A stretch of 59,799 bases of DNA, the filler included. It is 7 parts of 7 records of this genome, joined end to end, with 100 filler letters (N's around TTAATTAATTAA, not from the genome) between each part and the next. Parts side by side here need not be neighbours in the genome. Positions count along the whole stretch, not along the records: positions 1 to 9,000 come from DRR723986_41054; 6 more parts are not named here. The stretch is one strand, 5' to 3'. Below, in pieces: positions 1-13,037 of the stretch (its first letter is position 1; every line of letters begins with the position of its first letter). The notes below the pieces were generated by a model that did no database searches, was not told where the DNA came from, and saw only the letters and a list, made by a program, of their open reading frames with translations. The position numbers were made by a program, and so were the translations under genes.

Positions 1-105
1 AATCCATGTTAATCGGATTTAAGGTCTCGGGCCCCCGAACCTGAAAAATGGTCTGTCTGGATTAGAATGTTTCAATCCCTGTTAATCGGGATTTAAGTCC
101 GCCGC
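1..105 (-). CRISPR. Edge of a CRISPR array: one full ~37-nt repeat (69-105), one ~36-nt spacer (33-68) and a second, variant repeat truncated by the window start (1-32)
   Basis: Minus strand reads GCGGCGGACTTAAATCCCGATTAACAGGGATTGAAAC, then a spacer, then GCCCGAGACCTTAAATCCGATTAACATGGATT at the edge. Period is 73 nt. The first repeat ends in ATTGAAAC, and both have an internal AATCC(C)...(G)GGATT hairpin. Only two repeats are visible and no cas genes. Confidence 0.65.
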
Positions 106-1861
106 TAGAAATAGGCGTCTTCTTAATCACTCCAACAGACTCTAATCGCTTGATATTCCTGGGCTCACGCCACACCTTCATTCGCGTTTGCTTTTTATTT
201 TTGGTCTGCTGAACTTTATTGTCCGCTGAGTTAACAAGACCGCCTGGACCTCCGTCTAGCGCCAGTCCTGGTGCGGGTTTGCGCTCGAAGACGAAGTTGA
301 TTACACTGTTTCCAACCATGAGGTTATTCGGCGTGATTGAGTCACCTAGAAAAGCAGTAATTATCTGTCGCTTAATCTCGGAATTACTGCGTTTATACAG
401 TGCACCGATGTCTGCGAGTGTTGACAGACAGTCGATGTTTTCAACTGTTAGTGGCTTCGATTTCTGTTTAAGCTCATCAAGAGCCATCTCTGCCAGCTGC
501 CGCTCCTTTTCGAGCTTGCTACTAAACTGTCGATAATCCCCCGCTTCGAGATTGCCATCAAGATAGTCTGCTTTGACTCTCTCAATCTTCTTGATGATTA
601 TGCCCAGTGTCTTTTTCTGACTGTCTAACTTCTCCTGCGTACCCGTATCAATCTGATCGATGTGTTTCTGAATCAAGCTTTTGAATAGATCGAAGTTCTC
701 CTGCCTGAATGTTAAAGAATCAAACAAACTCGTCAGATCCTGTTCAATGTCCTGCATGCGATGATTGACTCGGCATTTCTTGCAAATCAAGTAGTGATAC
801 ACTTTTGGGCCACTGGCAAGCTTGTGATGTTTGCGCATGGGGTAAAGGTTGCGTCCGCAGGAGCAGCGCATGAGTCCCGTGACTGCAACGTCAGCTGCCA
901 ATTCGTCATCTTTAACCCGACTTGTTTTCTTGACAGTCCAGCGATTGTTTGCCTTCTGCCATCCTTTCTTTGAAACAATTGCCGAATGTTTTGCATCGGC
1001 AACTCTGGGAGCATCTGTGCGTGTGTCCAGACGCATCTTGCCCATGTACACTTCGTTCTTAATAATTCGTTCCATCTTCACCGGAAGATTCTCAGTGTCA
1101 TAGTGTTCTTCCAGAATCCGGCGTCTAATCGCTTGCAGGCTGAGGTTGGTCGTTTGTGCCAGTTCGAATATGCGTTTGACTGTCTTGGCCCGCGTCGGGT
1201 GTAGCTCCAGTACAGAATAACCATCTTGCTGAATGTAGCGATAACCGTATGGCGGTTTGCCGTGTACATAACCAAGGGACGTTTTCTTCTTAACACCCGC
1301 TCGCACACTCTCACCGCGCTTCATATTTTCATTCTGAGCCATTAGTGCCAAAATGCTGCGAGGTAGAAAGTCCGATGAGTACGGCGAATATGTGTCGCAG
1401 GTGACAACCGCGATACCAGCCTGTGCGAGTCGATCAGATGCGTATGAACTTTCGGAAAAGACTCGGCTGAGACGATCTGAAGTAATTGCGACAATTGCCT
1501 CTACTTCCGGATGCGTTTTGAGATATTCAAGCAGCTGCAACCAGGCAGGACGGTTCATACTTTTGGCACTGCAGTGGTCTTCGAAAGTCGGGCCAACCCA
1601 CTCAAAACTGTTGCGTATCCCAAACTCCGCAATAGTATCTCGCTGCGCCATGAGCGAAAAACGCTGCGCCTGGTCCTCGGTGCTGACGCGAATATACCTC
1701 AGTGCTTTTTTCACCCGCTTCGAATCCGCAATGTTCTTTTTCAGCAAGGGTGACGAATGGTACTTGCCATCTGATACTTCTGCGACCTGAACAAGCAGAT
1801 CGATTGCTTTCTCGCGTTCGCTTTTTTTGCTCTGCCTATTTCTGCGTGCTTTAGAACTCAT
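62..1861 (-). CDS. Large serine recombinase (resolvase catalytic domain, recombinase domain, zinc ribbon, coiled coil)
   Basis: Motifs YIRVSTEDQ (catalytic Ser), DRLSR, PPYGY and CSCG...CKKC, followed by a coiled coil. The ATG at 1861 sits next to the upstream stop (ORF track start is 1873). Confidence 0.92.
   Translation of the reverse strand: MSSKARRNRQSKKSEREKAIDLLVQVAEVSDGKYHSSPLLKKNIADSKRVKKALRYIRVSTEDQAQRFSLMAQRDTIAEFGIRNSFEWVGPTFEDHCSAKSMNRPAWLQLLEYLKTHPEVEAIVAITSDRLSRVFSESSYASDRLAQAGIAVVTCDTYSPYSSDFLPRSILALMAQNENMKRGESVRAGVKKKTSLGYVHGKPPYGYRYIQQDGYSVLELHPTRAKTVKRIFELAQTTNLSLQAIRRRILEEHYDTENLPVKMERIIKNEVYMGKMRLDTRTDAPRVADAKHSAIVSKKGWQKANNRWTVKKTSRVKDDELAADVAVTGLMRCSCGRNLYPMRKHHKLASGPKVYHYLICKKCRVNHRMQDIEQDLTSLFDSLTFRQENFDLFKSLIQKHIDQIDTGTQEKLDSQKKTLGIIIKKIERVKADYLDGNLEAGDYRQFSSKLEKERQLAEMALDELKQKSKPLTVENIDCLSTLADIGALYKRSNSEIKRQIITAFLGDSITPNNLMVGNSVINFVFERKPAPGLALDGGPGGLVNSADNKVQQTKNKKQTRMKVWREPRNIKRLESVGVIKKTPISSGGLKSRLTGIETF
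143..155 (-). promoter_or_regulatory. IHF-consensus site in the putative CRISPR leader
   Basis: Minus strand TATCAAGCGATTA fits WATCAANNNNTTR and lies about 40 nt upstream of the first repeat, a position known for IHF sites in some CRISPR leaders. Confidence 0.4.
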
Positions 1862-1862
1862 A

Positions 1863-2024
1863 CTATTTCTCACTGGTATGTTTGTGATCGTTCCGATTTA
1901 AGTTAACGATTAAGGTGGCGAAGAGTTTTGCTAACTCGCCAATGTTGTTTGCAAGTATTTGAGATTCCTCATCTGAAAGTTCAGGATGTTGCAGTTTTAC
2001 TGCAGATAATAGTTCTTTCTCCAT
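1863..2024 (-). CDS. Small helical protein translationally coupled to the recombinase (possible accessory or directionality factor)
   Basis: 53-aa ORF MEKELL...TSEK whose stop is 1 nt from the recombinase ATG. Function is inferred from position only. Confidence 0.5.
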   Translation of the reverse strand: MEKELLSAVKLQHPELSDEESQILANNIGELAKLFATLIVNLNRNDHKHTSEK

Positions 2025-2189
2025 TGCTACGCCTTCGAATATTTCGTGCGAAATGGAGGGGTCCAGTACAAAAGAAACGATAAAATTGATGAATATCAAC
2101 GGCAAAACGCGAAAGTGTTAACCGATGTTATGATTTTGGCACTCTGGGTATTGCATCGCGCTTGAATCGAGCCGTAAATTGCGTGAGCG

Positions 2190-3152
2190 GTGGCCCCCCA
2201 CCACACAATTTATGGATTTACGATAGTGAAAAATTTTAGCGCATTTGGTCCTGTTCATGCAGCACCAAAGTTTCTGTACAAGGTATGCGCAAAGCATAAC
2301 AAACTTGTTGACTTAAACGCAATTACTCTGCTGGCACGGCTTATGTACCTTTGCCTGGATGAAGAAGACGGAAGAGTGTTTTGCACGTATGCGTCGCTTG
2401 AGGAATCTCTTGGCTTAACGAAAAATCAGTCTCAATCGGCAGTCAAGCGATTGAAAGCACAGAATTTAATTACTACTGAACCCGCACAGAATGGACGATA
2501 TTATTTACCTAACATGCCGTTTCTGCGTCACTTGGCAGATCTGTGCAATGGTCAAAAACAAAGAGGTAAAGCTCCTCTAAAACAATTTGACACACCCGTG
2601 AAAACTATGTGGAAAGAGTGTGGAAAACTTAAATCGGGGGATGCTGTAGAGCACCGGGGGGATACGCTGGAACGTACTACACCCATAGGCTGCAACGTAC
2701 CTCAAAAAGCTCCTATTCCTTTTAAAGCAAATAAAAAAGAAAAAACAGACCCTTCTAGAGTGTTGGAAGAGTTTGGCATGGAGCGGTTGAATGATCCCGA
2801 TGAGGCTACAAAACTTTTGATGCGGTTTGCGAAAGAGTCCTGCTCGTTTTCACATTCACACTGGAAAAAGTTTTTCCGTGAAGCTCAAAACTGTCGGAAA
2901 GCCGACGGATTCCTGCTCACGGTCGAGTCCAGGCATGAGTGGATATACAACATCAACCCGATCTTGCTCAAAGAGGCAGTTACGTGCGTAATCGAAAAAA
3001 CCACGCATCCAACCGTCAACGAAATTGCTACTACCCTGCTTCGTGACCGGGCCATTCTGGAACAGCGGTGCAGGACACGTTTCACGCAGTATTTCAATTG
3101 GCGAAAGGCCTGGGAGTTAAACAACATTCCCACGATCGAGGAAATACAATGA
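2190..3152 (+). CDS. Helix-turn-helix protein resembling mobile-element/phage replication initiators
   Basis: N-terminal winged-HTH-like segment (CTYASLEESLGLTKNQSQSAVKRLKAQNLI), low-complexity linker, helical C-terminus; divergent from the recombinase. Confidence 0.5.
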   Translation: MAPHHTIYGFTIVKNFSAFGPVHAAPKFLYKVCAKHNKLVDLNAITLLARLMYLCLDEEDGRVFCTYASLEESLGLTKNQSQSAVKRLKAQNLITTEPAQNGRYYLPNMPFLRHLADLCNGQKQRGKAPLKQFDTPVKTMWKECGKLKSGDAVEHRGDTLERTTPIGCNVPQKAPIPFKANKKEKTDPSRVLEEFGMERLNDPDEATKLLMRFAKESCSFSHSHWKKFFREAQNCRKADGFLLTVESRHEWIYNINPILLKEAVTCVIEKTTHPTVNEIATTLLRDRAILEQRCRTRFTQYFNWRKAWELNNIPTIEEIQ

Positions 3153-3338
3153 AACTTCGATCTATTAACATCGTCAGATTGCAGCGCCTGTGCCGAAGCC
3201 CGTGCTTGCTTTTTGATTTTTTTGCTTAGTTGTTGAATGGGGAATGCTACAACACGAGAGTTGACGTTGAGCTGAACTGCAGTTGAATAGTGCAGACAAG
3301 AGGCTGCGGTGTTGAGTCATGCGAGCAACAAATAGCCA

Positions 3339-3626
3339 ATGAAAACATTGGAACTGTTTAACAGGCCTGAGCCTTACCTCCACAGTTTTGCGCATTGCCT
3401 GGAACCCAATTGGGAATTCACTCCGAGTCGTAGCCAACCTGCCGCACATGTATTTGCACGTATGACGAAGGCAGATGAAGAGCAAACCACGTTCTCGCAG
3501 GCAGCAATACACTCTCGTGCTTTGTACGGAAGTGAGCCAACGCTTAGAGTGCAGATTAAGGATGAACTGTATGGTCAGTTACAGCGTTACGCTGCGCAAT
3601 TCCTGAGTGTGATTCCAGCTCATTAG
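3339..3626 (+). CDS. Hypothetical protein
   Basis: 95-aa ATG ORF with no recognisable motif. Confidence 0.3.
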   Translation: MKTLELFNRPEPYLHSFAHCLEPNWEFTPSRSQPAAHVFARMTKADEEQTTFSQAAIHSRALYGSEPTLRVQIKDELYGQLQRYAAQFLSVIPAH

Positions 3627-3887
3627 TGTTTGAGATGTTCCGCTTACTTGAAGGTGATGAAGAAGTTATGCGCGTAGTTCTCCAATCTCGTCTGGCAAAA
3701 CAAGAGTATTTTTTCGATACAACGATCACTCTCACACGAATCAGCGAAATGTCTCACCTGAAAACTTTTAAGAAAGAATATAAGAGTTGAGTAATCGGTT
3801 CAGTGGCCTATTTGATTTGTGGACTAACGGTTGCAAAGATGCAAAAGCAAATAGAGCAGATTGCTGAGCTTACCTTTAAGCACGATA

Positions 3888-3915
3888 ATCGCACCTGAAG
3901 GCGGTTGTGTAAAGT
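3888..3915 (+). repeat. dif-like Xer site 1
   Basis: ATCGCACCTGA-AGGCGG-TTGTGTAAAGT, 11-6-11 architecture; 20/28 identical to site 2. Confidence 0.55.
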
Positions 3916-4105
3916 GAATTTTGGCTGTTCTGTTGTTTCACTTGATCAAAGGAATGTCACCGATACCCATTTTCCTGAATTTGCACGGAGTTGTGTCCCA
4001 CAATTGCTCAAAATACGTATTGACTACGTATTTCAATTTTTTCGAAGATTGAGTATCATACCAATAAACTCTTTTCACTGTTTCCCTTTTTTTGGAGAAA
4101 AGATA

Positions 4106-5035
4106 ATGTCCACACTAGCGACAGAAACCACATCAACGCCTGAATTGGATTTTGTATGGCTTGAACTCACAAATCGTTGTAATCTACACTGTGTACATTG
4201 TTATTCAGAATCGAGTCCCTATACAGGTGAACAGGACATATTGAAAGAGTCGGACTATATAAGATTGATGAAAGAAGTTCGTGCTCTTGGATGCGAGAAT
4301 ATTCAGTTTATCGGTGGTGAACCAACCTTAAATCGTAGTCTTCCTCGCCTGATTGAAGAAGCAGCTAATCTGAAATTCCCATTTATTGAAGTATTCACAA
4401 ATTTGCATCACTTAAGCGAAAACCTGCTCGGCACGTTTGTTAAGTATGATGTAGCAATTGCGACATCATTTTACTCCGATGATCCAGAAGTTCATGATGC
4501 AATAACGACCCATTCTGGTAGTTTTCATCGCACCGTCAAGAACATGCGCCGTGTACTTGCTGCAGGACTTCGCCTGAGAGCCGGAATAATTATGATGGAG
4601 CAAAATCAGGCTAGGTTTAATGAGACGTGGAAGTTTCTTGAAGAACTTGGCATTGAGAACATTGGAACAGATCACGTACGAGAATTTGGCCGAGCAAATG
4701 AGGCTTCGAGTTGTGGAATGGAAGAGCTTTGTGGAAGCTGTGCCGGCAACATCCTTTCAGTGGGGCCAGATGGAATAGTGGCACCATGTAACATGTCAAA
4801 ATCATGGTCTGTGGGATCTGTTCTCGAAAACAATCTCACGGATATTGTGAGATCCGAGAAGCTTACACAAACCAGGCACAAAATTGGTGAAAGTGTTAAA
4901 GAAAAGCTGAAGGAAGCCCCGCATGCGGTTTGCCCGCCGAAAACATGTGCACCTTACTCGTCTTGTTGCCCTTCAACTCAAAGTTGCAATCCATGTGCTC
5001 CAAACGGTTGTAATCCTTGCTATCCTAAAGGTTGA
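4106..5035 (+). CDS. Radical SAM/SPASM(twitch) protein with a C-terminal Cys/Pro-rich (C-x-P)x7 tail
   Basis: CNLHCVHC (CxxxCxxC), GGEP, and a SPASM/twitch-like CGSCAG...GPDGIVAPC...VGSV segment. GGAG RBS precedes the ATG at 4106. Tail: CPPKTCAPYSSCCPSTQSCNPCAPNGCNPCYPKG. Confidence 0.9.
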   Translation: MSTLATETTSTPELDFVWLELTNRCNLHCVHCYSESSPYTGEQDILKESDYIRLMKEVRALGCENIQFIGGEPTLNRSLPRLIEEAANLKFPFIEVFTNLHHLSENLLGTFVKYDVAIATSFYSDDPEVHDAITTHSGSFHRTVKNMRRVLAAGLRLRAGIIMMEQNQARFNETWKFLEELGIENIGTDHVREFGRANEASSCGMEELCGSCAGNILSVGPDGIVAPCNMSKSWSVGSVLENNLTDIVRSEKLTQTRHKIGESVKEKLKEAPHAVCPPKTCAPYSSCCPSTQSCNPCAPNGCNPCYPKG

Positions 5036-5091
5036 TCAATTAGCTGACTTTTTGAGAAACTGCATAATCACATTAGTGAGTTCTGAGAGTT

Positions 5092-6189
5092 TTGGGCAAT
5101 AACATTCTTCGTCTACTGCTTAGAGTCTACGGAATGACGTGCGTTGCGCTCGTTGTCATTCTTATTGCCCAAAACTGGTTTGTCATGTCGCCTGAAGAAT
5201 ACGCCCCAGCGGACCAATTGAGAGTTGAGTTTCATAATAGGCAGGTCATTGGCCAACTTGTTGCTGGCACCCTGGTTCTATTCGGTTTGTACCTCACTTG
5301 GCGCCGCATGTTGGCAATTGAACGAAGTTCAACAACTGCTGAACATTCGCAAATAACACAAAGTTTTAATGATGCCATAAGTCAATTAGGCAGCAAAAAA
5401 ACACAAGGAAGAATGGGAGGTTTGTATGCCCTTGAAAGAATCATGCATAATTCAGAAGGAGATATATCTGCGATCGCAGAAGTAATTTCAAGATTTGTTA
5501 GAATCCAATCACCATATAATAGACCGACCGAAGAAATAGGCACTCAGGTTGAAGAGCGTGAATCGGTCGATCGCAGATATGTTTCAGCTGCAAAACATTC
5601 TAAGCTTGGAGAGGATGTCAAATCCGCACTTAACATACTAGGCCGCAGACCCAACATAGAAAGCAAGCTGATCAGAATATTTTTGCATGAGGCTGACCTT
5701 AGTCATGCAGTGTGTTTAGAAGCCAATTTTGAAGAGGCTGAATTTTGGAGTTCGAATCTTCAGTTCGTGAACTTCTGGATGGCCAATCTAAGACAAGCGA
5801 GTTTTTGGTGCTCTAACCTGAGTGACGCACACTTAGTTGGAGGGAATTTTGCTGGTGCGGATTTTTGGGGAGCCAATTTGCGAAATTCAGAATTGACTTA
5901 TGCTAACCTATGGGCTGTTGACTTACGCGAAGCTAATTTGGAAGGTGTAAACTTTGAGGAAGCATTTCTGGCTATGGCGGATCTTATAGGTTCAAAGGGA
6001 GTTACAGTTGAGCAATTGCTTTCAGCAAACAGTCTCTACAAGGCAAAAATCGACTCCTCAACTAAGGAAACTCTATACAAAAAGAAGCCTAGGCTTTTCG
6101 AAAAACCAGCGCGTTTTGATGAAATACAAGGATTACACTATACCTATGCCACACGATTTGAATATCCATTCAACGGCAAAGCCACCTAA
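5092..6189 (+). CDS. Membrane-anchored pentapeptide-repeat protein
   Basis: Two N-terminal hydrophobic helices, the RMGGLYALERI segment typical of this family, and A(D/N)(L/F)xx repeats (ADLSH, ANFEE, ANLRQ, ANLRN, ANLEG). Confidence 0.85.
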   Translation: MGNNILRLLLRVYGMTCVALVVILIAQNWFVMSPEEYAPADQLRVEFHNRQVIGQLVAGTLVLFGLYLTWRRMLAIERSSTTAEHSQITQSFNDAISQLGSKKTQGRMGGLYALERIMHNSEGDISAIAEVISRFVRIQSPYNRPTEEIGTQVEERESVDRRYVSAAKHSKLGEDVKSALNILGRRPNIESKLIRIFLHEADLSHAVCLEANFEEAEFWSSNLQFVNFWMANLRQASFWCSNLSDAHLVGGNFAGADFWGANLRNSELTYANLWAVDLREANLEGVNFEEAFLAMADLIGSKGVTVEQLLSANSLYKAKIDSSTKETLYKKKPRLFEKPARFDEIQGLHYTYATRFEYPFNGKAT

Positions 6190-6206
6190 TGGAGGTTATG
6201 TAAAGC
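6179..6206 (+). repeat. dif-like Xer site 2 (its TAA is the pentapeptide gene's stop codon)
   Basis: AAGCCACCTAA-TGGAGG-TTATGTAAAGC; right arm resembles XerD arms (TTATGTTAAAT, TTATGTAAACT). Confidence 0.65.
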
Positions 6207-6478
6207 TGTATAATGATGCACTCCTCCGGCTACGGAATATTGTGTTCCTTTATGGGATTTAATCCATTTACCAAAAGTTGGCATTTTTCGCAGCTACCCG
6301 GTCATTACCCCTTCAATGATTGACAAGGGGCATTTCAGGCCAAAACCTACGCTTAGAAGTACAGTGACTTCACCAAACCGTAGGTTTTCGTTTAGATGCC
6401 TCCGCTGGTCGATACTGTTCGTCCGCATACGGCGATCAGGTATTTCCCGCCGTATGTTATGGGCTGGTTTCCTTCGTG

Positions 6479-7855
6479 TCACTTTACTTTCACGATTATA
6501 CTGCGATGCAATACTTGCCCTTTGTCTCCCGTGAGTGTTATAATGTAAACACCTGCAGGTTGTTCACTGATGTCAAGTGTGCTTACGTTTTTCTTGTAGA
6601 CAACAATTTGTCCTCTTACGTTTGTGAGTTGCACGTTTGATTGAACAGAAAAATTTATTGTGCTGTTAGTTGGGTTGGGGTAAACCAAGATGATGTTACT
6701 TTCATTAATTACTGACAAAGGAGAACACAACGAACTTAAACCTGCCGTCAGAACAGGGCTGTTTCTTTGAATGGTTGTTCCATCTCCTAATTCCCCGTAG
6801 TTGTTCCACCCACATGCCCATAGAGTGCCGTCATTTTTTAGAAAGAGTGAATACCATCCACCAGCAGCAATCAAGGCAATATCTGCAAGAGAACCTAACT
6901 GTACTGGAGAGGATTGACTAATAGTTGTTCCTATACCCAATTCTCCAGATCTATTTCGTCCACAAACCCAAACAGTGCTATCACTTTTCAAAAATACAGC
7001 ATGGCTCCAACCTGTAGCAATAGCGGTGACTCCTGTAAGAGAATTAACCTGTACGGGGATTGAAAAATTGGTAGTTGAGCCATTGCCCAACTGTCCGTAA
7101 TCATTTTTTCCACATGCCCAAACAGTGCTATCATTCTTAAGAAAAAGAGAAAACCATCCACCGCCCGCAGCAATAGAGGTGATTCCCGTGAGAGAGATTA
7201 CCTGAACAGGAGAAGATTGACTGGTTGTTGAACCATCCCCTAATTGACCATCTCCATTATTTCCACAAGCCCAAGCAGTACCATCACTTTTCAGGAATAG
7301 AGAATGAGCATATCCTGCCGCAATAGCGGAGATATCTGTGAGTAAATTTACCTTGACAGGAATGGGTTGACTTGTAGTTGTTCCATTCCCTAACTCTCCT
7401 GAGCTGTTGTTTCCACAAGCCCAAACGGTACCATCATTTTTCAGAAAAAGAGAGTGATATTCTCCTGCTGAAATGGCAATAATGTTTGTAAGAGAGCTTA
7501 TCTGTACAGGCATAGCTATACTTGTACCTACACTATTTCCTGATTGCCCATACTGATTACTTCCACAAGCCCAAACTGTGCCATCATATTTAAGAAAGAG
7601 TGAATGGTCTCTTCCTCCTGCAACGGAAATGATACCTTTAAGAGAATTTACCTGAACGGGCATGTTTTGTTGAGTGAATGTTCCATTTCCCACTTGACCA
7701 TAATGGTTGTATCCCCAAGCTATTACTGTACTGTCACCGCAAATAAAGAAAGAGTGAGCATCTCCACAGATAACTGATTGTGCAATTGTAATATTGTTCA
7801 ATCCAATCAATGCAAATATTGCTATTGAAATTGATACTTTTATGTGCTTTATCAT
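6479..7855 (-). CDS. Secreted RCC1-repeat beta-propeller protein with a T9SS C-terminal sorting domain
   Basis: Signal peptide, about seven HSLFLKxDGTVWACGxNxxGQLGxG repeats, and a C-terminal VYPNPT...GVYII... Por-secretion tail. Confidence 0.92.
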   Translation of the reverse strand: MIKHIKVSISIAIFALIGLNNITIAQSVICGDAHSFFICGDSTVIAWGYNHYGQVGNGTFTQQNMPVQVNSLKGIISVAGGRDHSLFLKYDGTVWACGSNQYGQSGNSVGTSIAMPVQISSLTNIIAISAGEYHSLFLKNDGTVWACGNNSSGELGNGTTTSQPIPVKVNLLTDISAIAAGYAHSLFLKSDGTAWACGNNGDGQLGDGSTTSQSSPVQVISLTGITSIAAGGGWFSLFLKNDSTVWACGKNDYGQLGNGSTTNFSIPVQVNSLTGVTAIATGWSHAVFLKSDSTVWVCGRNRSGELGIGTTISQSSPVQLGSLADIALIAAGGWYSLFLKNDGTLWACGWNNYGELGDGTTIQRNSPVLTAGLSSLCSPLSVINESNIILVYPNPTNSTINFSVQSNVQLTNVRGQIVVYKKNVSTLDISEQPAGVYIITLTGDKGQVLHRSIIVKVK

Positions 7856-8274
7856 TTTGATTTTCTTTTAAAGTTTTTTTAATCATAAGGCTTTAGGTGT
7901 CGCCCCGTTTTTGAAATGGTTGCTGGTCTCCATTTTTAGAAATGATAGTTTGTTGTCAGTCAGAAAAGACTGCCAGGATGTTTCAAAATGAAAAGTCGGC
8001 GGCTCTCTTGACTGCCGCTTTCCATTGTGCTGTGTCGTTTTAAACTTACCTATAACATTCGCATATCACGAATGACATTCATGTTATCCTTGCCTCTTAC
8101 ACAAGTTTTATTCAAGATGCTCTTAAAATATTGAGAGTAAAGTATATAAAACGGATTCAATAACCCAGTACGAACATCGCCTTACTTCAGGGTGTGATAA
8201 AAACGTTGATCTATTTGAATCACGTTTAAATCAGCACTTTTTAAAGTGTAAAAGTTTTTGTCGGGTACCGTGCG

Positions 8275-8302
8275 GGCGCACCTAATCAAATTTATCTAAA
8301 GT
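8275..8302 (+). repeat. dif-like Xer site 3
   Basis: GGCGCACCTAA-TCAAAT-TTATCTAAAGT. Confidence 0.6.
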
Positions 8303-8581
8303 AGCGCATGGGTATACCAGCAATACTTTCTGTGTCCTGCCTCAGCTTGGGATAATGAGCAAATCCAATTTATAGAGTTTGACTTCCTTGATCTATATCC
8401 GAAGCTTGAAAAATGGGATAAAACATCAAGAGACGATTTAGAAAATATCATAAAGACAATAGACGACGCTTTCGAAGAAGGAGAAAAAGATGCTAATGAT
8501 TGATCCCAAGTCGAATCGTTATTAAGTGAGTATTCTAGCAGATCTGGCTCAGATCTGAAGTAAATTTTCGCGACTACTTTA

Positions 8582-8609
8582 AAGCCCTCTAATAAACCTT
8601 ATGTATAGT
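8582..8609 (+). repeat. dif-like Xer site 4
   Basis: AAGCCCTCTAA-TAAACC-TTATGTATAGT. Confidence 0.55.
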
Positions 8610-8668
8610 TGTAATCAGTCTTGTGGATACTATTCCATACTGATGAAGCTCTCGAACTTCACTCTAGA

Positions 8669-8810
8669 GTATGCCCAATCCCAGTGAAAATGACCGCCTA
8701 ATCCCATTGAACGTGACCGATTGCATTCTGTCAATGAGCGGTAGTTATTCAAAGATAGAAAATTAGTTTGTACACTTCACGATCGGTCATTTTCGTGAGA
8801 TGGGGCATAC
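8669..8810. mobile_element. 142-bp non-autonomous element (MITE-like) with IS21-like terminal inverted repeats
   Basis: Left end GTATGCCCAATCCCAGTGAAAATGACCG versus reverse complement of the right end GTATGCCCCATCTCACGAAAATGACCG. An internal second copy (ATCCCATTGAACGTGACCG) recalls the reiterated ends of IS21-family elements. No ORF. Confidence 0.55.
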
Positions 8811-8831
8811 CTAACCGATGTTGTGTGCAGG
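8804..8831 (+). repeat. Degenerate dif-like site 5, overlapping the MITE right end
   Basis: GGCATACCTAA-CCGATG-TTGTGTGCAGG. Confidence 0.3.
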
Positions 8832-8971
8832 AGTGGTCCTAATATCGCTGGTGGAGACTCTCAAAACAAGATGGCGGTGGTTTGTTCGACGTGTTCAGCG
8901 TGAAGCACATGAGTATAAATTGCGCGGTAGCCAATTGTAAACTGCAGTGCCAAAGCAATCGGCGAATTAGT

Positions 8972-9000
8972 TGCCCCATCTCACGAAAATGACCGCCTAA
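8972..9000 (+). mobile_element. Start of another copy of the IS21-like end, cut by the end of the piece
   Basis: 8972-8995 is the exact reverse complement of 8784-8807 and continues CCTAA as in the copy at 8669. Confidence 0.55.
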
Positions 9001-12442: not shown

Positions 12443-13037
12443 GCTCGCAAGGCTTCTTCGTTGCCAGCAAAACTGCTTACGGCCGGGCGAGCCCACCGAA
12501 ACGCCCCTTAGCGTGCCCTAATCTACCAAAGTGAGCGAGCGGGTTTGCCTACGGACCTGGCACTGCTTCCCAGCAGCCCTGATCCATCTCATCCCGCTAG
12601 CAATGAGCCGCTTTGCCGCTGGTGGACCGTCCACCGAGCCCGGTGAAGCGGCACAAGTTTGACCGCTGGTTCTTGGCCGCTAAATCTTCTTTTGGCCGCA
12701 AAGACGTCCTTGCGTGCTACTTGCAAGTGGCCAATGAGTGGTGTCAGCAGGTGTTCAAATGGGCTGTTTGGGTAGAAAGTTCCGGTTTGGTGGACTTTAC
12801 GGTGGGCGTCCCGTTGACAGTCGAAGTCTGAGCGATAACCTAACGGCCAGCTTCCTTAGATTACCCAGATCGCTTGATCGTTATTTCTTGCGATCAGTGG
12901 TTCCGGGCAGAACGCCTCAGGCGTGTCCCGGCGGAAGGAAGCCCAACTAAACAACCTATGAAACAGGCGGAGTCCCGCCCAGATAGCTCAACGGTTGAGC
13001 TATCGACATGAGTGTTGGTAACCTTTGGAGGTATCCG

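Follow-up and report, generated by a model that had tools for sequence, protein, structure and literature searches.

A metagenome fragment of 9 kb was found to carry four directly repeated 28-bp sites that separate small gene modules, and comparison with other genomes supports the view that these sites are built like the core sites of Xer/dif recombination. The fragment is the first piece (piece 1, positions 1-9000, GC content 0.43) of the 59.8-kb stretch of DNA that was analysed, here called the window, which is a concatenation of seven unrelated contigs and not a single genome stretch. The GC contents of the seven pieces are 0.43, 0.57, 0.49, 0.44, 0.58, 0.56 and 0.71, and the joins between them are spacers of the form N44-TTAATTAATTAA-N44. 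The array of sites lies wholly inside piece 1. The four sites are real, far beyond chance, and we consider it about an even bet (probability roughly 0.5) that they are the junctions of recombinase-less modules inserted in tandem by an Xer-type tyrosine recombinase pair, in the manner of IMEXs (integrative mobile elements exploiting Xer recombination) or of dif modules. The array is a single instance, found on an orphan fragment from a metagenome, so its value is that of a well-defined lead.

The four 28-bp sites

The original prediction, made from the letters of the sequence, had listed four clear sites and a degenerate fifth, all in one orientation. The four clear sites were recovered letter for letter, all of them on the + strand (Table 1). 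Each consists of an 11-nt arm, a 6-nt centre and a second 11-nt arm (11-6-11, 28 bp), with partial dyad symmetry at the inner arm ends, which read TAA/TTA in three of the four sites and TGA/TTG in site 1. A search of the whole window with the arms of site 2, allowing up to 3 mismatches, returned exactly 4 matches, these four sites, and none in the other 50 kb. The same pattern gave a mean of 0.06 matches in 100 dinucleotide-preserving shuffles, none of which reached 4, so the motif does not occur at a similar density in shuffled sequence. Because the search pattern came from the sites themselves, leave-one-out scoring was added, in which each site was scored by a matrix of the other three over the 17,946 positions in 1-9000. 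Each site ranked 4th of 17,946, directly behind the three sites that had built the matrix, with scores of 18-27 bits against 4-11 bits for the next best position.

Alignment with 30-nt flanks showed that sequence conservation is confined to the 28-bp core. Single-strand folding of the sites was not above that of shuffles (z-scores -0.3 to +1.3), and the idea of hairpin-folding sites was rejected, the folding energies being equal to those of shuffles. As there is no single-strand folding and only 28 bp are conserved, the sites are not attC sites, terminators or parts of a longer repeat element. Promoter and terminator scans gave no enrichment at the sites. All four lie outside long open reading frames (ORFs), with site 2 overlapping a stop codon only. 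The 6-bp centres, or spacers, are all different, and their central dinucleotides are GC, GA, AA and AA. The two spacers that bound module 1 (AGGCGG and TGGAGG) agree at 4/6 positions, which is not significant with six pairs compared.

The degenerate fifth site, placed at 8804 by the original prediction, did not hold up. It scored 7.8 bits, against 7.4 bits for the best chance match in the other 50 kb, and one arm of a perfect inverted repeat of 24 nt (8784-8807/8972-8995) encloses it. It was dropped as a site because of this chance-level score and its location in the inverted-repeat arm.

The arms of the sites compared with the dif of Bacteroidota

A T9SS (type IX secretion system) domain and a DUF805 RNA motif, both encoded in module 2 as described below, and the nearest Atlas clusters (used as a lead only) point to an origin of piece 1 in the Bacteroidota in the wide sense. 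Piece 4, the GC content of which is close to that of piece 1, yielded no clue to its taxonomy. A dif reference was built independently of the window, from other Bacteroidota genomes. The pattern TAA-N6-TTATGTAAAG gave 96 matches in 70 of 131 sampled genomes, and 46 of the 96 have one of three spacers, TATAAA (19), TATATA (20) or TTTATA (7). These 46 matches are spread over 45/131 genomes and are single copy in 44. At 11 of the loci the GC skew was determined; it was greater on the left than on the right in 10/11, and switched from + to - in 7/11. Given one site per genome and a GC skew as expected at the terminus, the recurrent-spacer sites were taken to be chromosomal dif, examples being TTGTTGTATAA-TATAAA-TTATGTAAAGT and AAGTCATATAA-TATATA-TTATGTAAAGT. 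They are consistent with the work of Kono et al., where dif was predicted in 19/19 Bacteroidetes (PMC3025954) and where the right arm of the Bacillus subtilis dif is given as TTATGTAAACT. A matrix was made from 12 full dif sites, which end in TTATGTAAAG/C and one further base (T in 9/12).

On the right, the arms of the array have the consensus TTATGTAAAGT, and the XerD-side arm of the Bacteroidota dif has this very sequence. The individual right arms match TTATGTAAAGT at 10 of 11 positions and score 15.1-17.6 of a possible 20.7 bits with the matrix of 12 dif sites. Judged by sequence, the right half of the sites is the XerD-side arm of the phylum's dif. The left arm is also conserved within the array (SC-M-Y-CTRA), where it reads CGCACCTRA or AAGCCMYCTAA, and it is unlike the XerC-side arm of any dif in 301 sampled Bacteroidota genomes. 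Comparison with the dif of the sampled Bacteroidota upheld the right arm and not the left, and the proposal that the array was built by host XerC/D is to that extent not supported. No position in 1-9000 combines a dif-type left arm with an AT-rich spacer. Two sets of look-alikes in Bacteroidota were rejected as sites: five of six CACCTAA look-alikes lie within long open frames, and the flanks of the CACCTGA-TCATCC look-alikes vary as codons do.

The CACCTAA left arm is present in candidate dif sites of some Chloroflexota. Only 4/151 genomes matched a shorter exact pattern and 11/151 matched at up to 2 mismatches, and the Chloroflexota were on these counts rejected as the source of this left-arm type. 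One 28-mer with a CACCTAA left arm was seen repeatedly, in two species of Dehalococcoidia and in eight contigs from metagenomes. This 28-mer, TAACCACCTAA-CGCACT/CGAATT-TTATGTAAAGC, is conserved and intergenic, lying between convergent ORFs. It is probably the dif of these organisms, with a left arm of the same type as that of the sites in the window. The occurrence of the CACCTAA arm in candidate dif sites of Chloroflexota suggests that some Xer protein can read such an arm, and the host of the array is not thereby identified.

Two further arrangements were seen among the Bacteroidota dif loci. One chromosome (locus L104, G131:C1) has two full dif sites, at 8599-8626 (+) and 12629-12656 (-), which are 4 kb apart, inverted and both intergenic. 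They flank four genes, for a DUF4403 protein, an NAD-binding protein, a protein of unknown function and a radical SAM protein, and the arrangement resembles a dif module of the Acinetobacter type that could be inverted. In two Bacteroidota groups dif has a second site as a neighbour, which is inverted and has a perfect right arm but another spacer, and the arrangement is conserved. The distance from dif to the second site is about 565 bp in three genomes (loci L105, L107 and L108 in G020, G025 and G015) and about 50 bp in three others (L106, L109 and L129 in G103, G016 and G035).

The modules between the sites

The sites separate three modules (Table 1), the gene content of which is as originally described: a radical SAM gene and a pentapeptide gene in module 1, an RCC1-T9SS gene in module 2, and no gene in module 3. 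The placement of the sites at module boundaries was likewise confirmed, as all lie outside long ORFs and the modules that they border differ in composition. The GC content at third codon positions (GC3) is 0.51 and 0.46 in the backbone genes to the left of site 1 and changes at the sites, in steps, to the values given for modules 1 and 2 in Table 1. The genes face both directions, the RCC1 gene being opposite to the genes of module 1. Domain searches found no recombinase domain in the module genes (Pfam) and no replication, capsid, transfer or viral genes in the modules (Pfam, PHROG). The statement that the piece encodes no tyrosine recombinase was borne out for the main ORFs of 1-9000, among which the Pfam domain search found none.

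Table 1. Features of piece 1, with positions counted along the window
Feature	Coordinates	Strand	Details
Large serine recombinase, 603 aa	62..1873	-	Pfam Resolvase 1.4e-20, Recombinase 6e-10; phrog_95 integrase 3.6e-58
Winged-helix protein, 320 aa	2190..3152	+	Pfam MarR_2, DnaD_N below cut-off; PHROG replication-initiation families E 7.5e-5 to 7.6e-4
Site 1	3888..3915	+	ATCGCACCTGA-AGGCGG-TTGTGTAAAGT; left border of module 1; intergenic, 190 bp before radical SAM start codon
Module 1 gene 1, radical SAM/SPASM	4106..5035	+	Pfam Radical_SAM 8.5e-20, SPASM 9.9e-8; GC3 0.35
Module 1 gene 2, N-terminal membrane region and pentapeptide repeats	5092..6189	+	Pfam Pentapeptide 2e-21; GC3 0.37
Site 2	6179..6206	+	AAGCCACCTAA-TGGAGG-TTATGTAAAGC; border of modules 1/2
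Module 2 gene, secreted RCC1-repeat protein	6479..7855	-	Pfam WD40_RLD 2.3e-90, RCC1 x7, Por_Secre_tail 7.5e-10 (T9SS C-terminal sorting domain); GC3 0.30
DUF805 RNA motif (RF03081)	7872..7938	-	65.8 bits vs gathering score 51.1; E 1.1e-10; full-length match
Site 3	8275..8302	+	GGCGCACCTAA-TCAAAT-TTATCTAAAGT; border of modules 2/3
Module 3	8303..8581		279 bp, GC 0.376, no recognisable gene
Site 4	8582..8609	+	AAGCCCTCTAA-TAAACC-TTATGTATAGT; last site before piece end
Inverted-repeat unit	8784..8995		212 bp; arms 100% complementary, 164 nt between

The radical SAM/SPASM gene of module 1 did not reach the level of any NCBIfam equivalog, and its matches in a defence-system library were generic radical SAM (viperin-type) matches only. 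Its product has a Cys/Pro-rich C-terminal tail (CPPKTCAPYSSCCPSTQSCNPCAPNGCNPCYPKG). The second gene of the module ends in a TAA stop codon (6187-6189) which is the inner end of the left arm of site 2, confirming that this site supplies the stop codon of the pentapeptide gene. The combination of a radical SAM gene followed by a membrane-anchored pentapeptide gene is a pair without close relatives. In module 2, the nearest Atlas clusters of the RCC1 protein are mostly from Bacteroidota. The DUF805 RNA motif lies directly upstream of the RCC1/T9SS gene and not of a DUF805 gene; as the 5' leader of the RCC1 gene it gives module 2 its own regulatory region. The absence of genes from module 3 was confirmed in that no ORF with a start codon of at least 60 aa was found in 8303-8581. 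A start-less frame of 66 codons there had 1 match (E 3.5e-4) and no credible relative.

Piece 1 ends 391 bases past site 4, and its coding share is about 74% (sum of ORF lengths). With lengths of exactly 9000 and 8000 bases, two pieces of the window may be excerpts of longer records.

Search for relatives

An exact motif, CACCTAA-N6-TTATGTAAAG, was scanned for in several collections. It was found 5 times in viral contigs, 21 times in 185,579 species genomes, where the matches were scattered over phyla, and 67 times in metagenome contigs. Six of the 67 metagenome loci have one extra match at 3 mismatches, four of the six being the same locus with the extra match on the opposite strand, and none of the 67 has three matches. 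The paired sites at one locus (L094) were rejected since they lie within paralogous ORFs, and the second site at another (L102/L103) since it lies within a conserved ORF of the ICMT family.

Relatives of the module proteins were few, and no module had a close homologue in the collections searched. The best homologue of the pentapeptide protein in a collection of 5.8 billion proteins has 30% identity, and no relatives of it were found in viral contigs. No match to the radical SAM protein at E<=1e-30 was found in 401 Bacteroidota genomes. RCC1 homologues with 37-46% identity are present in 7/401 of these genomes. No similar DNA was found in plasmid and phage collections, save for a spurious match of 43 bp.

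A model for the array and the evidence against it

In the model that we prefer, the 28-bp sites would each be made up of a left arm, a 6-bp crossover region and an XerD-type right arm, recognised by an Xer-type recombinase pair. Small circular modules without a recombinase of their own, each with one site, would insert successively into a resident site. Each insertion would leave the module with a hybrid site on either side, the two being direct repeats, and further insertions at an end site would build a row of modules. In principle, any module could also be excised again, as a circle that includes one of its flanking sites. If the crossover falls at the boundary of arm and spacer, as on the CTX-type route, an internal site would be composed of the left arm of the left module and the spacer and right arm of the right module, and spacers that are all different would be expected. 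Unlike 6-bp centres would also hinder a complete two-strand exchange between neighbours and in this way stabilise the array, which makes the earlier suggestion that spacers lock the modules in place plausible. The left arm might be read by the XerC of the host, if the host dif has such an arm, or by a specialised partner. Insertion is suggested by the geometry of the sites, their XerD-type arm, their common orientation and their location at compositional borders. From this we infer that XerD and a partner may bind and cut the sites, that the modules may have arrived by insertion, and that they may be mobile.

A number of observations weigh against this model. With all four spacers different, the canonical reaction between sites, by XerC and then XerD, is hindered. 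The modules have no replication or transfer function by which a circle might persist or travel. With the Bacteroidota dif matrix, the left arms (CACCTAA type) score only -7 to +2 bits against 11-16 bits for real dif. No recurrent dif of the CACCTAA type was found at up to 2 mismatches in the 301 sampled Bacteroidota genomes, a scan in which the control columns, judged by eye, were of the same order as the matches. Canonical dif, xerC and xerD were not found in the 9-kb piece. The scan with the exact motif gave single matches only and no array, exact sites never occurring twice at a locus, and the source contig did not appear in the results. The original prediction held that homologues of the modules elsewhere should end at such sites, and this was not seen for the seven RCC1 homologues, which had no flanking sites of the array type within 1.5 kb, a result that says little at an identity of 37-46%; two of the seven loci had one weak single match each. 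Finally, no second context was found for any module in the collections searched.

A bolder version of the model would see the array as integrase-free gene stacking in Bacteroidota, in which each small non-viral module carries a 28-bp site that combines the XerD arm of the host with a left arm of its own kind and a 6-bp centre found in no other module. The host XerD, paired either with a specialised partner or with XerC acting on an arm that is not of dif type, would insert the modules in tandem, and the array would be a double-strand Xer counterpart of integron arrays. We consider this version speculative and unlikely to be correct as it stands.

Comparison with known systems

Of the known systems, IMEXs are described as lacking their own integrase, being flanked by direct dif-like hybrid sites and being stacked, with differing crossover regions (PMC9226527, PMC4246890, 10.64898/2026.06.12.731946). 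The IMEX arrays of Vibrio cholerae (CTX/TLC/VGJ) are like the array described here in having no recombinase of their own, direct dif-like sites, tandem stacking and differing centres. However, the known IMEXs are phages, satellites and genomic islands that are able to replicate or be packaged and are found at chromosomal dif, whereas the modules here have at most two genes, of ordinary kinds, and in one case no gene. Piece 1 also shows no canonical dif, and the left arm of its sites differs from that of the dif in the sampled phylum.

In Acinetobacter, dif (pdif) modules are described as small accessory modules without a recombinase, with 28-bp XerC/XerD-type sites and variable spacers (PMC13141974, PMC6449649, PMC11705084). 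The likeness extends to the small size of the modules (0.3-2.3 kb), the absence of a recombinase, the 28-bp sites, the variable spacers and a location beside a backbone of replication type. Acinetobacter modules are bounded by inverted sites that alternate between C/D and D/C. The array differs in that its four sites all point the same way, in its phylum, and in that none of its modules was found in another context.

Microvirus-related proviruses of Bacteroidetes, which have no recombinase gene, are described as having imperfect direct dif-like repeats at their ends, and use of host XerC/D was proposed for them (Krupovic and Forterre 2011, PMC3091885). They share with the array the phylum, the lack of a recombinase gene and the direct dif-like repeats, but they are complete viral genomes of 4.7-6.3 kb, whereas the modules here have no viral genes and form a row of at least three.

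The original prediction described the array as integron-like. It does resemble an integron in being a row of small gene units between recombination sites, one of them apparently empty. An integron has IntI with attI and a promoter at one end, followed by promoterless cassettes in one orientation, and its attC sites are imperfect palindromes of about 60-140 nt that fold as single strands. In contrast, piece 1 contains no IntI or attI and no tyrosine recombinase, its sites are 28 bp long and non-folding, and its genes face both ways, the RCC1 gene having its own leader RNA. The integron comparison is therefore not sustained, the reading as integron-like capture of genes by XerC/D of the host goes further than the data, which neither prove nor contradict it, and the direct-repeat layout is a better fit to tandem insertion of the IMEX type than to an integron.

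Xer recombination is already known to move phages at dif, as IMEXs, and to move resistance modules between plasmids of Acinetobacter. Activity of the sites described here would widen the range of modular gene exchange driven by Xer, which would then include ordinary non-viral genes, the Bacteroidota and a direct-repeat layout; this layout predicts excisable circles and not inversions. With a right arm of host type and a left arm specific to the array, it would also become of interest what protein recognises the left arm.

Alternative explanations

The sites may instead belong to a dedicated tyrosine recombinase, Xer-like or integrase-like, that is encoded beyond the 9-kb piece, in which case they would be labelled crossover points or a cassette platform independent of host dimer resolution. 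A left arm that is conserved in the array yet unlike the sampled Bacteroidota dif is what a private specificity predicts, and the piece, a fragment of exactly 9000 bases, may have been cut. On the other hand, no such gene was seen in the piece, and the right arm agrees at 9-10/11 positions with the XerD arm of host type, a likeness that a private system would have no need to maintain. We give this explanation a modest chance of being correct.

It is also conceivable, and in our view quite unlikely, that the 28-mers bind a protein that is not a recombinase (a regulator, or a partition or silencing protein), their likeness to dif being coincidental, or that they are dead relics of Xer sites. Nothing observed here shows recombination, all of the sites are intergenic, where regulators bind, and sites 1, 3 and 4 are each one position off the consensus right arm, which could be decay. 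Set against this are the two arms with a 6-bp gap, which fit a known class of recombinase sites and include an 11-nt arm equal to that of the phylum's dif, and the spacing of the sites, which lie kilobases apart at module borders. They do not form clusters at promoters, and scans for promoters and terminators were without enrichment.

A third explanation is a composite island like the staphylococcal cassette chromosome (SCC), in which the serine recombinase at 62-1873 would insert and excise the modules, with the 28-mers as attachment cores repeated at the bounds of tandem elements. In SCC composite islands, direct repeats separate elements that stand in tandem, and some of these lack recombinase genes; the likeness to the islands of staphylococci (CcrAB), as they are usually described, lies in a large serine recombinase beside tandem modules with direct repeats. 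The serine recombinase of piece 1 lies 2 kb from site 1 and has weak similarity to CcrB, XisF and phage integrases. Serine recombinases cross over at a 2-bp dyad centre that is the same in both partners. In the array, however, the central dinucleotides differ, and the conserved part is only 28 bp, with the 11-6-11 geometry of tyrosine recombinase sites; there is also no further copy of the site beside the serine recombinase gene. Since the 2-bp centres differ and no copy is found near the gene, the sites are unlikely to be those of the serine recombinase. The relatives of this enzyme (one at 51% identity, others at 22-26%) are too distant to test the link, and the explanation as a whole appears very improbable.

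Chance similarity or an assembly artefact, for which only the small number of sites speaks, can be neglected, as all four sites are backed by the shuffles and the leave-one-out ranks and the copies are imperfect, 28 bp long, and too short and unlike to mislead an assembler.

Backbone genes and inverted-repeat unit

The matches of the large serine recombinase to NCBIfam XisF and CcrB were below the cut-off. One closer relative was found in the protein collection (51% identity), while matches in the plasmid and phage collections were all below 26% identity and no relatives were found in viral contigs. The recombinase belongs to the backbone or to a neighbouring element and is probably not the enzyme of the 28-bp sites. 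Neither this gene nor that of the winged-helix protein had been mentioned in the original prediction. At the 3' end of the recombinase gene a unit of 26 nt that can form a hairpin (AATCC-N-GGATT type) is present twice, at 1-26 and 74-99, once within the coding end and once downstream.

The 320-aa winged-helix protein is possibly a replication initiator, a weak assignment that follows from its domain and PHROG matches. No homologue at E<=0.001 and no match in plasmid and phage collections was found for it, and Atlas gives leads only. Between its gene and site 1 there are small orphan ORFs.

The 212-bp unit at 8784-8995 is possibly a small non-autonomous transposable element, to judge from its perfect inverted repeats, and not an Xer-type site. 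A partial third copy of the inverted-repeat arm motif (GAAAATGACCGCCTAA) is present at 8688 (region 8686-8707), and the motif appears again at the very end of piece 1.

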